Shown: positions 1-35,098 of the stretch, one piece after another
Numbering within the stretch: the first letter of the stretch is position 1
Layout of the letters: the number at the start of each line of letters is the position of its first letter
DNA from: Eledone cirrhosa
Lineage: Eukaryota
Direction of reading: 5' to 3'
Length of the DNA stretch: 64,000 nucleotides
Assembly (NCBI GenBank): GCA_964016885.1
Contig: OZ024745.1
Coordinates: forward strand, 35,464,001 to 35,528,000
Position numbers and translations under genes: made by a program
Notes under the pieces: generated by a model
What the model was told of the DNA's origin: nothing
The model's input: the letters and a program-made list of their open reading frames with translations, nothing else
Databases searched by the model: none

Positions 1-660
<660 letters not shown>

Positions 661-724
661 TGCTTTTAAATTAATCAATAAACATTTGGATAAACTACGG
701 TGTGTTTTCTCTTCGAATGCTGTC

Positions 725-850
725 CAGCAGCAGCAGCAACAACAACAGCAACAACAACAACAGCAACAACAACAACAGCTACAACAACAACAACAGCTAC
801 AACAACAACATCAACAACAGCAACAACAACAACAACAACGACAACAACAG
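725..850 (+). repeat. (CAA/CAG)n tract, in frame with ORF1 as poly-Gln
   Basis: cagcagcagcaacaacaa... reads about 40 Q in the ORF1 frame. Confidence 0.9.
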
Positions 851-877
851 TGTGAACCACTCCTTGATTCATCAACA

Positions 878-1642
878 ATGGCCGATCTACTAAATGAAAC
901 TATTGACCCCCCAGTAGCCTCTGTCTCACAGCATGAAACGCCACATCCTTTCTCTGGCCCAGCAGTCCAATCATCACCACTGCCAACATCTCTGCCTACT
1001 ACTACTACTACTACTACAACATTTTTGTCTACTGCTATGTCAAGGAATTTACCTTCTAATACCAGAACAAGAACTCTCCCTCCCACAGTCCACAAAGGTC
1101 GTCAAATCCTACCCAAACAATCATCCACACCTCTCACAACACCCACACCCACATACCCACCCACTCGAAACCGCATCATTTGCCGCTACTCTCTACGCTA
1201 TAGAATATGTACGGATAGTGGCTGCAAATTCACCCATTTACCTAGGACAAAACGATCTATCCCCACAAACAGCCACCACCATAATACATACTCTAATTTA
1301 ACACCAACACAACCACCAATAACTCAAACAAGGAATCCACAAATCTGCCGTTTTTCCCTGCGAGACAGATTGTGTTTAGACCGGGATTGTCCCTTTACCC
1401 ATCTCCCGGGGACCCGTCGGATAAATGAAAATAAAATTAAAAATAAAAGCAAAAACAAAAACCATAACCTACATAAAAATAACCACTACCACAGTCACCA
1501 ACAGTCTTCTAAACAGGAAACTTCTTCCTCTTTTTTAGCCATAATGAATCTGGCAAAAGAACTGGAAAAAAACATTCGAGCTATCACCCAGCACCACCCT
1601 CCACTATCACCCCACTGCACAAACTCCCATTGCTGCCATTAA
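878..1642 (+). CDS. LINE ORF1 (Pro/Thr/Ser-rich, two C-x8-C-x4-C-x3-H zinc fingers); frame also open upstream through the poly-Q
   Basis: [19 protein letters not shown] (1181-1237) and [19 protein letters not shown] (1346-1402). ATG at 878; the true start is uncertain. Confidence 0.8.
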
Positions 1643-4600
1643 CAAACAAACAAATTAACAACACACCAAAACAATTAAAACCATCCACTCTCGCCTCTAC
1701 ATTTTTGCTTAACGCCCAAGGCATCAGCCCTTCCACCAATACTCAAAAATGGAAGATCAAATTCCTGGAGGACTGGATTGATGTCCATCCAAACCACATC
1801 CCTTTCTTCGTCCTCACTGAAACCCATCTCAGTAACCTCCACTTGGAAGCCGAGGTGAAAGTGAAAAATTTCAAAGCCATCCGTGCTGATCGCGCTGGCA
1901 GAAGAAAGGGCGGAACTGCCATTTATGTCCATAATTCTTTCTCAACAGAGGCTATGAACATATTCACTAATGGATACTGTGAGGCAGTCACTGTATTCAG
2001 TCAAACCAACAACCTATTAGTAGTTGGGCTCTATAGGCCACCCCAAACGCCTGTACCATGCTTCAAGGAATGCCTCAACAGCATAAAGTGTTTCATCCAA
2101 GAGTGTCACCCTGACAACATCTTAATGATGGGGGACTTCAACCTCCCCGGAGTTGACTGGTTCACAAACACCCTGCCACCAGGTTCTTCTGCCTCAACCT
2201 CTGACAGGGAAGCTGTGGAATCACTTCTTGACTTCATGGATGATTTCTTCCTATCCCAACTAGTGCTCGAACCAACGAGGTGCCACAAAAACGTCCTAGA
2301 CTTAATTTTCAGCAATCACACTGACAATATCCACAATATTGCAGTGGAGAAAACTCTACTCTCTGATCATGACATGGTTCTCTGTGATCTGAGATTCCAC
2401 CGTCCAATATACAAACCCAATGTCATCTCTCCTGTCCATCCGTTTGACGCTATGGATTTCCACAATGCAAACTGGGAAGCGATCAGTCATGATCTTGCAC
2501 ATGTCGACTGGTCCTTCACGCACACTCATACACCCACTAACATCAAAAAGTCCTGGCAGACATTTGTGGACACTGTTACAAACATATGTGCTAAACACAC
2601 CCCATTAAGAACTATAAACAAATCTAAGAGCAGAATCCCTAGAAATAGAAAAACGCTCATCAGAAAAATTAAGAGAACGAACAAAAAATCAACAAGCTGA
2701 AATACTGTCAGCAGCAACACATCAACTTGACTGCCATTTCATCACTAGAGATTAAAAAACATAACCTCCAAAACAACATAATGTCCCTCATCAACAATCA
2801 GAGAAGAGCTGAAGAGGCCTGGGCCATTGAGAAGATCAAACTCAATCCCAAAGTGTTCTTTTCATTTGCAAAAAAACACAAAATCACTGGCTCTACTGTT
2901 GGCCCTCTAATTGATGAAAATGGCACTCTTCAAGACAATGCTAAAACCATGGGTGAGATACTGCAGAAACAATACTGCTCTGTTTTCAGCAATCCTGATA
3001 TGGCCGATCTGGGCTGTATCGGCGATGTTACTCCCCATTACACCTTATCGGACATAACGTTTGGCGCCCCTGATGTCTTGGCGGCAATAAAGGAAATCAA
3101 GCATAATTCAGCAGTAGGTCCCGATAGGTTCCCTGCTTGTGTCCTGAAGGCGTGTCAACACCAACTTGCTTCTCCTCTTGCCAATCTGTGGCGGAACTCA
3201 CTGGATGCTGGATATGTGCCAGAAAACCTTCTATCCCAGTCTGTTGTCCCAGTTTTCAAAAAGGGAAACAAATCCCATGCCGTGAATTACCGTCCAATCT
3301 CACTCACCTCTCATATCATTAAGGTATTTGAGCGAGTGGTGAGATCGCGAATGACCCACTTCCTTGAGAGTAACAATATGCTGAACTCCAACCAGCATGG
3401 ATTCCGTAATGGAAGGGATTGCCTGACGCAACTACTGCATCACTTTGATGATATTTTGAGAGCCTTGGGAGAGGGTTCCAACACTGATGTTATCTACCTT
3501 GATTTCAGCAAGGCCTTTGACAGGGTTGATCATAACATTCTACTGAGAAAGCTGTCCAATATTGGTGTCACTGGAAAGCTGCTGCAGTGGATCAAGAGCT
3601 TCCTGTCAAACAGAACCCAACATGTTGTAGTTGAGGGAGTCAAATCAAGCCCAGCCAAAGTCAGTAGTGGAGTCCCACAAGGCACTGTGTTGGGCCCACT
3701 TCTCTTCATCATCTATATTAATGACATCACTGACATCATCAAACACAGCAACATTAAAATTTTCGCTGATGATTCCAAGCTCCAAAAGGTCATCAATGGC
3801 GTGGATGACCGGATAAGCCTTCAGTCAGACCTACTGGCTGTTACCCAATGGGCAGAAAAGAACAACATGTTACTGAACGAGGACAAATTCGAACTGATCC
3901 ACTTTGGAAAAGAGGATGCTCTGAAACTCCCGTACTCCCTTCCCTCCGGGGAAACTCTCGTGGCATCTAACAACATCAGAGACTTGGGAGTAACCGTGGA
4001 CAGCAACATAAGCTGGACCACGCATATAAGCAGCAAAGTTGACATGGCCCGCAGAATGTGTTCCTGGATCCTCAGAACCTTCCAGTCGAGAGATTCCCGC
4101 ACCATTATCCTTCTCTTCTCTACTTTCGCCCGACCACACCTTGAATACTGTTGTCCACTGTGGTCTCCCCACACGAAACAAAGTATCATGAAACTTGAAG
4201 CTCCTCAAAGGGCAATCACGAAAAAGATAGATGGCATGTCAGACCTTGACTACTGGGGTCGATTGGAAAACCTGAAACTTTACTCACTCCAACGTCGCCG
4301 TGAGCGTTATATTATCTGCATGATGTGGAAAATGTTCCATCATCACTGCCCAAATGATGTTGGCATCGCCTTCAAGATACACCCAAGGCTTGGGCCCCGT
4401 GCTATCCGTCCCATTCAAAAATCTAAATCGCAACTCATAACAACAATACGGCACAATTATTTCACCTCAATCGGCCCTGCTCTCTTCAACATCACACCAG
4501 GACACGTCAAAACAGAACTGACCACACAAAATTCAAGAAGTCTTTGGACAAATTCCTCCAAGTAATCCCGGACAAACCACCCACACCCGGATATGTCTCC

Positions 4601-4648
4601 GCAAACAGTAATTCTCTTCTCGAATGGGCCATGGTGCCCAAATCCTGA
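1513..4648 (+). pseudogene. LINE ORF2: APE endonuclease + reverse transcriptase, interrupted by two single-A deletions (~2686, ~4517)
   Basis: EN motifs LTETHL, GGTAIYV, YRPP, GDFNLP, LDLIF, SDH. RT motifs NYRPISLTS, QHGFR, YLDFSKAFD, GVPQGTVLGP, FADD, YSLQRRRERY. Restoring one A at each site gives a continuous ORF ending FKKSLDKFLQVIPDKP...NSLLEWAMVPKS*. Confidence 0.92.
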
Positions 4649-4732
4649 ATTGAAAGACTTCGCCAGGTGGTGCTATTAAGTTAGACATGGCCTGGGCCAA
4701 TACTGGCCAAAACATTTCAAAGTTATTCAAAG

Positions 4733-6699
<1,967 letters not shown>

Positions 6700-7369: not shown

Positions 7370-7697
7370 CAAAGGTCCCGTCTTCCACATCTAGAATAAG
7401 GAGCAGGTATTGCAATAGCCTGGGATTCAAGGGCCGTCAACTCTTCAACAGGCTGCCGAGGCATCTGAGAGACTTGCATGACGTGGAGGTGGATGTCTTT
7501 AAGAAACATCTCGACACCTTGTTATCCAGGATCCCGGATGAGCCCACAGCAAGACACGAGGGAAACCTAAGGGCAGCAGCAACAAACTCCCTCCTACACC
7601 AGTGGCCAACCTATACAGGCTGGAGATAAAATGTGTAGCAACAAGGGCGGTGCCCCAGCATGGCCTCAGCCGGATGGCTGAAACAGGTAAAAGAGAA
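7370..7697 (+). mobile_element. 3' end of a second LINE of the same clade (ORF2 C-terminus 7372-7629 plus 3' UTR)
   Basis: Frame 7372-7629 reads ...RYCNSLGFKGRQLFNRLP...[16 protein letters not shown]...NSLLHQ..., homologous to the C-terminus of the 661-4733 ORF2. It ends in a 3' stem-loop, then TA. Confidence 0.85.
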
Positions 7698-8081
7698 TAT
7701 ATTTATATATACATATATTTATATATACATATATTTATATATACATATATTTATATATATATATATATATACATATATTTATATATATATATATATATAC
7801 ATATATTTATATATATATATATATATATACATATATTTATATATATATATATATATACATATATTTATATATATATATATATATACATATATTTATATAT
7901 ATATATATATATACATATATTTATATATATATACATATATTTATATATATATATATATACATATATTTATATATATATATACATATATTTATATATATAT
8001 ATACATATATTTATGTATATATATATATACATATATTTAAATATATATATACATATATTTATATATATATATATATACGTA

Positions 8082-34932: not shown

Positions 34933-34936
<4 letters not shown>
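34676..34936. repeat. Fold-back element (~112-bp arms) with a 20-bp perfect palindrome at the junction
   Basis: 34676-34788 vs 34825-34936; attctggactagtccagaat at 34788-34807. Confidence 0.9.
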
Positions 34937-34969
<33 letters not shown>

Positions 34970-34999
34970 GTGTGTGTGTGTGCATGTATGTATATATGC

Positions 35000-35046
<47 letters not shown>

Positions 35047-35098
35047 CTCTTTTACCTGTTCCAGCCATCCGGCTGAGGCCATGTGGGGCACCGCCCTT
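35047..35098 (-). mobile_element. Extremely 5'-truncated copy (3' terminus only) of the LINE at 7370-7697
   Basis: Reverse complement aagggcggtgcccca-catggcctcagccggatggctggaacaggtaaaagag matches 7642-7695. Confidence 0.88.

Follow-up and report, generated by a model that had tools for sequence, protein, structure and literature searches.

The route by which the second open reading frame (ORF2) of LINEs is translated has been described as open in review (PMC3894237). In the accessible parts of two papers, L1 and SART1 are assigned termination-reinitiation, which gives a separate ORF2 protein (ORF2p); the route has been demonstrated, with an AUG, in SART1 and put forward for L1 (PMC5972666; PMC2881922). 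The first-pass annotation of the DNA treated here had given reinitiation or translational coupling for both elements, in agreement with these sources. Frameshifting has been ascribed to other non-LTR elements: according to a review legend, a -1 frameshift is required for ORF2 of Dictyostelium TRE5-A and TRE3-A (PMC5911963), and Drosophila HeT-A is said, in the available text of another paper, to need a frameshift for its expression, within gag (PMC5009743). The same text gives U_UUU_UUA as the shift site of HIV (PMC5009743). For octopus LINEs, one paper deals with RTE elements that have a single ORF, and the word "frameshift" does not occur in its accessible portion (PMC9115989).

The locus described here, the ORF1/ORF2 junction of a LINE family from Eledone cirrhosa (family A), resembles HIV-1 gag-pol in having an identical heptamer, in the same phase and within the first ORF, from which the -1 frame leads to enzymes (PMC5009743, in the part available). 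In both, the first ORF runs on past the site. Family A differs in being a non-LTR element with an endonuclease (EN) and reverse transcriptase (RT) and no protease, and its shift is predicted from sequence alone. The HIV frameshift site is followed by a stem-loop after a short spacer, whereas no conserved downstream structure was found in family A and its relatives. With TRE5-A and TRE3-A, as the review presents them, family A shares the two-ORF, APE-type non-LTR organization; those elements are amoebozoan and target tRNA genes, whereas the family A site is invariant over a broad clade with a CCCH-finger ORF1. HeT-A, by the description available, is gag-only and has no RT, and its shift lies inside gag. 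The likeness to L1 and SART1 consists in a bicistronic LINE RNA and a low ORF2 output dependent on ORF1 translation (PMC3894237, in part); as far as the accessible text goes, those elements have a UAAUG overlap, or a 63-nt spacer and an AUG, whereas family A has no AUG, a 130-nt -1 overlap and a predicted fusion. The mechanism would be of a known kind, retroviral gag-pol-like -1 frameshifting. No published slippery site in such LINEs was found in the titles and abstract openings covered, most subscription journals and Repbase Reports lying outside that coverage.

The window, that is, the whole 64,000-nt stretch of DNA analysed, has at 659..4735 on the + strand a young APE-type LINE of family A that lacks its 5' end and sits within (TA)n. 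Family A is an APE-type non-LTR retrotransposon, with an ORF2 that encodes an APE endonuclease and then an RT (matches to PF03372/PF14529 and PF00078 exceed the cut-off); numerous copies are 5'-truncated, LTRs are lacking and the 3' tail is a simple repeat. L031 is a full natural copy, of about 4.7 kb. Truncation at 659 leaves the window copy without the ORF1 ATG. Its remaining ORF1 part (662..1642, +) comprises a poly-Gln tract, a Thr/Pro-rich linker, two CCCH zinc-finger-like motifs read from the sequence (1181..1237 and 1346..1402, +; zf-C3H1 matches the second only at E 0.82) and a C-terminal tail. Full copies have an ORF1 of 391 aa, counted from its own ATG, the N-terminus of which gives a weak Myb/SANT-like match (PF13837, E 0.0023, below the curated cut-off). 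The CAA/CAG poly-Gln tract (window 722-845) differs in length between near-identical copies, by a multiple of 3 in nearly all cases, and the 5' UTR of the family holds two splice-donor-like motifs, GTAAGC and GTGAGT (L031:2497-2506 and 2676-2685), as well as a direct repeat of about 55 nt. The APE-type endonuclease domain occupies 1699..2379 (+): it begins with motif I (TFLLNAQG, from 1699) and ends with the Pfam match, which spans ORF2 aa 82-289. The RT domain lies at 3267..3995 (+; Pfam RVT_1, E 7e-32). Intact family A copies have an ORF2 frame of 1,045 codons with the first Met at position 148. The window copy itself is defective, being both 5'-truncated and broken: on comparison with other copies, an A-run at 2683..2688 (+) is one base short, breaking ORF2 in this copy only (all 30 copies compared have an extra A, 29 of them one more and 1 two more), and a second frame break lies near 4516.

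The element ends at 4695..4735 (+) in a small GGCCA/TGGCC stem-loop and a (TTCAAAGTTA)x2 tail, read from the sequence. The 3' ends of family A and of two sister families in the same genome, B and C (window 4686-4708; L137; L138), all finish in TGGCCT with a stem-loop and a short tandem tail, and the stems differ among the three (GGCCA/TGGCC, TCAGCC/GGCTGA and TGAG/CTCA); the shared stem-loop and tail are likely the recognition signal of the RT. A (TA)n or similar microsatellite adjoins the truncation point or the tail in nearly all printed copies of the three families (window 659 and 4716-4735; L001-L030; L031-L040), which suggests microsatellite targeting. Two 3' fragments of family B also lie in the window, at 7370-7835 (+, 94% identical) and 34935-35098 (-, 84% identical). 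Contigs of run X1 (kind unknown) reach a summed depth of about 10,000 over window 1324-1593, against 200-400 on either side, and this peak may be an effect of many short contigs.

At the junction, a TAA at 1510..1512 (+) closes the -1 frame six codons before the slippery site, so that the ORF2 frame opens at 1513, -1 relative to ORF1, and overlaps it by 130 nt up to the ORF1 stop at 1640-1642, exactly as the first-pass annotation had placed it. Its further claim that ORF2 has no initiator ATG was confirmed: the first ATG in the ORF2 frame is at 1954 (aa 148), 312 nt beyond the ORF1 stop, past both EN motif I and the TETH motif and within the Pfam match to EN, and no AUG of the SART1/L1 type lies at or shortly after that stop upstream of EN. 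Both heptamers that had been noted are in the phase of ORF1. Heptamer 1, T-TTT-TTA, at 1531..1537 (+), reads Phe-Leu in ORF1, is followed by G at 1538 and is the predicted frameshift site; heptamer 2, A-AAA-AAC, at 1567..1573 (+), is a candidate backup site. From heptamer 1 to the endonuclease, the -1 frame runs as a linker of 54 codons without stop or ATG (1537..1698, +), and the ORF1 frame runs on for 34 codons and a stop (1538..1642, +), a tail that a shifted ribosome would not make. By a single-sequence fold of the family A ORF1 protein (ORF1p), of low confidence (mean pLDDT 46.7), this tail is predicted to open with a helix, at residues 353-376 (H353-376).

This two-frame junction is the normal state of family A and not decay of the window copy. 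The 40 best of 1,481 candidate copies are identical over 1340-2040, a set biased by the ranking, and a junction pattern with the A-run left free gave 638 matches; among the 100 of these listed, the run is A7 in 94, A8 in 3, A6 in 1 and carries a substitution in 2. Of the first 30 matches in genome order, 29 cover T6A, and 26 of them have it intact. Decay or an assembly error at the junction was rejected, given these copies with the same layout. A fused master lineage was likewise rejected, the three A8 copies examined being truncated or broken further on and these copies and L203, a copy with an in-frame deletion, being truncated, broken or private. Either an in-frame ATG ahead of EN or a single fused ORF in the family had been named beforehand as fatal to a frameshift, and family A has neither. 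In an older, decayed subfamily, about 80% identical, most copies keep the T-run, the A-run and the ORF1 stop, with shared indels of 12 and 3 nt after that stop.

Families B and C have 37-42% ORF2 identity to family A and to each other, and both hold T-TTT-TTA-G in the ORF1 phase (as AAT TTT TTA G in B and AGT TTT TTA G in C), with ORF2 in the -1 frame and no ATG before EN. Their ORF1 N-termini, as read from translations (L031:2930-4105 for A, L201:2574-3536 for B, L193:3024-4382 for C), are Myb-like with poly-Gln and two CCCH fingers in A, Myb-like with one CCCH finger in B, and PHD-like with three in C, which suggests, at the level of sequence, a swapping of modules upstream of a fixed and putative frameshift site. 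Relatives were collected from the best 80 of 413 loci in a metagenome scan and the best 80 of 378 in a genome-contig scan, and quick RT trees put families A-C in one clade with SH-aLRT 99 (19 of 51 rows in one tree, 20 of 37 in the other), at 37-45% identity within the clade. This clade may resemble Proto2, with CR1, Crack and L2 also considered, the trees showing only an unnamed clade. Three papers bear on its naming, in the parts available (PMC7846101; PMC10294476; PMC5753468). A metagenome scan with P0001 alone gave no match, and a viral scan gave five distant RT matches at 27-28% identity. Many prokaryote genome bins hold whole eukaryote-type LINEs (L370-L449), likely as host contamination.

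Nine clade members have a readable junction, the rest being proteins without DNA or contigs that start inside ORF2. ORF2 is in the -1 frame in all nine, and eight of them (A, B, C, L266, L267, L268, L270 and L271) have T-TTT-TTA in the ORF1 phase; the ninth, L373, has A-AAA-AAC instead. The base after the heptamer is G in six of the eight TTTTTTA junctions, and there is no ATG before EN in seven of the nine, family A included, L270 and L373 having an in-frame ATG in the linker. The proposed conservation check on the two heptamers thus came out divided: heptamer 1 is a deeply conserved site, and heptamer 2 is local, retained by family A and by the majority of copies in the older subfamily and absent from the overlaps of the other families. 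Across seven elements, in-phase TTTTTTA is found at 1 in 8,959 codon positions outside the overlaps versus once in each of the seven overlaps. Were only the amino acids conserved, this codon choice would have P 0.009-0.05 per element and 3e-13 jointly (seven elements, independence assumed). The -1 frame is open from heptamer to EN over 54-135 codons in all nine elements, with a joint P of 1e-8.6 by codon shuffle and of 1e-10.8 when the ORF1 tail is resampled synonymously, independence again being assumed; upstream of the heptamer it meets a stop within 1-7 codons in eight of the nine, and at 26 codons in family B. ORF1 continues for 34-132 codons past the heptamer.

The same site can be followed in ORF1 proteins. 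With E no higher than 0.001, the CCCH region of family C matched 1,894 protein clusters, not all of which are necessarily LINE ORF1; a look-up of ORF1p in the Atlas returned unnamed CCCH clusters only. The best 150 homologues were taken and 7 removed, 3 because no finger was matched and 4 because the tail was shorter than 40 aa, leaving 143 scored, and FL follows the last finger in 132 of them, the first FL of each tail being used, so that a few may be wrong. The residue before FL is never M, W, K, E or Q, which have no T-ending codon (0/132, background 27.7%), and in 113 of 132 the next residue is one that a codon beginning with G can encode (background 20%). The residues seen before FL are S, H, D, N, P and T. 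These are also common helix N-caps, and since they fit on that account too and the lineages are not independent, the pre-FL test is overstated. It supports the DNA result as a back-up and does not stand alone. After FL, the ORF1 tails are amphipathic-helix-like and then Gln/Pro-rich.

In a wider set, 71 loci with a long ORF2 were sorted into 29 with a -1 overlap, 10 with a +1 arrangement, 11 with a same-frame stop and 21 without a readable ORF1. A strict in-phase heptamer is present in 21 of the 29 -1 overlaps (three in-clade TTTTTTA loci and L373 included) and in none of the eight +1 overlaps of at least 10 nt; 24 heptamers are in phase versus 6 in the two other phases together. CR1-type junctions (L276, L294, L383 and L390) also show a -1 overlap with an in-phase slippery heptamer but sit on a separate branch of the RT tree, L390 being outside the trees; the ORF1 of L276 and of L294 stops immediately at the heptamer, whereas in the clade of families A-C it continues.

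The usual stimulator of -1 frameshifting is a stem-loop 5-9 nt downstream of the slippery site. A search of local folds over eight elements found no conserved downstream stimulator (z -2.5 to +1.3), with a clean hairpin at the usual spacing only in L268 (one of the eight, z about -2), and in family A there is no significant fold, the downstream sequence folding no better than its shuffles. The 4-bp GCCA/TGGC hairpin at 1538..1554 (+), which the first-pass annotation had offered as a weak stimulator, is present, but it is unlikely to act as one because it follows heptamer 1 without a spacer and has no counterpart in relatives. Pairing of the 3' tail behind the slippery site was not supported (duplex z -1.27 to +0.96 in six elements). 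Three short nested helices of such pairing can be drawn in family A; they are unsupported, since in the older subfamily a T-T mismatch appears in the 8-bp helix and the other two show no variation. As the usual stem-loop was sought and not found, the junction is not classed here as a canonical heptamer-plus-stimulator signal.

The features looked for in a -1 frameshift site are otherwise present: an X_XXY_YYZ heptamer in the phase of the upstream ORF, an open -1 frame, and conservation of both site and phase in diverged relatives. Because U_UUU_UUA is kept in the ORF1 phase and no AUG lies ahead of the endonuclease, ORF2 is probably reached by programmed -1 ribosomal frameshifting and made as an ORF1-ORF2 fusion, a prediction to which we give a probability of roughly 85%; the retrovirus-like fusion suggested at the outset is the best-supported reading, on the strength of sequence conservation. 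Most ribosomes would read Phe-Leu in frame and complete an ORF1p with a helical, Gln/Pro-rich tail, and a small share would slip back by one base, tRNA-Phe and tRNA-Leu re-pairing on UUU UUU, and continue through the linker of 54 codons to EN and RT. The product of an intact copy would be a rare fusion of about 1,394 aa (357 + 1,037), with the ORF1 zinc fingers and without the ORF1 tail. As no conserved downstream structure was found, the shift rate would presumably be low and set mainly by the heptamer, with its usual 3' G, and many ORF1p would therefore be made per RT; in family A, A-AAA-AAC at 1567 may be a backup site. We infer that a low, heptamer-driven rate fits the small need of LINEs for ORF2p, as discussed in the available part of one review (PMC3894237).

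Termination-reinitiation without an AUG would have the ribosome restart at a near-cognate codon near the ORF1 stop (CTG 1615, TTG 1630 or CTG 1633), and we consider this improbable. These CTG/TTG codons at 1615-1633 do lie just before the ORF1 stop and upstream of EN, the stop falls within 14 nt of the start of EN in eight of the nine elements, and the route is the one described for L1 and SART1 in reviews, in the sections available (PMC5972666; PMC2881922). Reinitiation nevertheless leaves unexplained the heptamer, its phase, its swap for another heptamer and a -1 frame open for 54-135 codons. The position of the stop, moreover, largely follows from a linker poor in Leu, Ile, Val and Met (P 0.10-0.78 in eight of the nine elements, 0.019 in family B); five of the nine have their stop within the first EN strand, and family A has it 56 nt ahead of EN.

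Less probable still is that TTTTTTAG serves as a 3' splice acceptor, a leaky intron inside ORF1 being removed so that ORF1 is joined in frame to ORF2. An acceptor would also predict the G that follows six of the eight TTTTTTA junctions and is implied in 113 of 132 proteins; a pyrimidine run adjoins the site in family A, a phase-2 GTATGA lies 146 nt upstream in family C, and in family C a gene model from the database, P0032, runs from ORF1 into the ORF2 frame near the same place. Against these points, the AG is missing from L271 (TTTTTTA-ATG) and differently phased in L267 (TTTTTTA-CAG), and L373 is without the motif, while families B and C are purine-rich upstream, with 3-4 AG, and no strong phase-2 donor is held in common (the best give 5-7 of 9 matches). 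Nor was a processed copy found in families A and C: family C gave 0 matches, and searches with a non-T at -3 and at -5 gave 2 matches, both unspliced point changes, and 1, a 5'-truncated copy, respectively. Neither the invariant, one-phase AG acceptor nor the processed genomic copies that a spliced ORF1-ORF2 fusion calls for were thus seen in the material searched. Reasoning from the lack of processed copies presupposes cis preference, and LINEs recognising a 3' stem-loop may show it less strongly. Contigs of four runs (kind unknown) show no joint ending at 1539, which carries no weight either way.

That family A shifts mainly at heptamer 2 (A-AAA-AAC, 1567-1573) is very unlikely. This heptamer is in phase, is kept in 94 of the 100 copies listed and in most copies of the older subfamily, stands by itself in the in-clade relative L373, and belongs, by the accessible text of one source, to the most shifty heptamers (PMC5009743); yet it is absent from the other seven TTTTTTA junctions, some strict heptamer should turn up in roughly one of every 10 overlaps 41 codons long (at 0.0026 per codon), and heptamer 1 is intact in the window copy. 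Transcriptional slippage, in which RNA polymerase would add one U in the T6 run to give a fused mRNA, is the least probable of all: the conserved feature is indeed a homopolymer run, and T7 occurs in 2 of 120 anchored family A loci (loci partly redundant), but fused RNAs should be copied back and spread, whereas T7 and A8 copies are sporadic and the three A8 copies examined are damaged further on, and polymerase slippage would fix neither the codon phase nor the terminal A.

If programmed -1 frameshifting at heptamer 1 is right, its reach may be considerable. Tentatively, and at somewhat less than even odds, a large animal LINE clade with a CCCH-finger ORF1 (up to about 1,900 clusters at 50% identity) would make its EN-RT solely as a Gag-Pol-like fusion, by a -1 shift on a bare, HIV-identical U_UUU_UUA(G) without an RNA stimulator, trading the C-terminal multimerising helix of ORF1p for enzymes; taken together with the distant relatives (21/29), frameshifting rather than reinitiation would then be the commonest route to ORF2 in two-ORF LINEs outside L1. 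The worked LINE cases, L1 and SART1, are reinitiation. Because the site is invariant, the prediction can be tested by a silent change of one codon, in a highly active family whose near-identical copies number in the hundreds. Should the prediction hold, gene models and repeat libraries that start ORF2 at an internal Met would need correction, as would models that splice across the site, as P0032 appears to do, and the clade would offer a large natural set for the study of frameshifting in which an RNA stimulator plays little or no part. These LINEs would, moreover, have an RT that carries the zinc fingers of its own ORF1, as retroviral Gag-Pol does.
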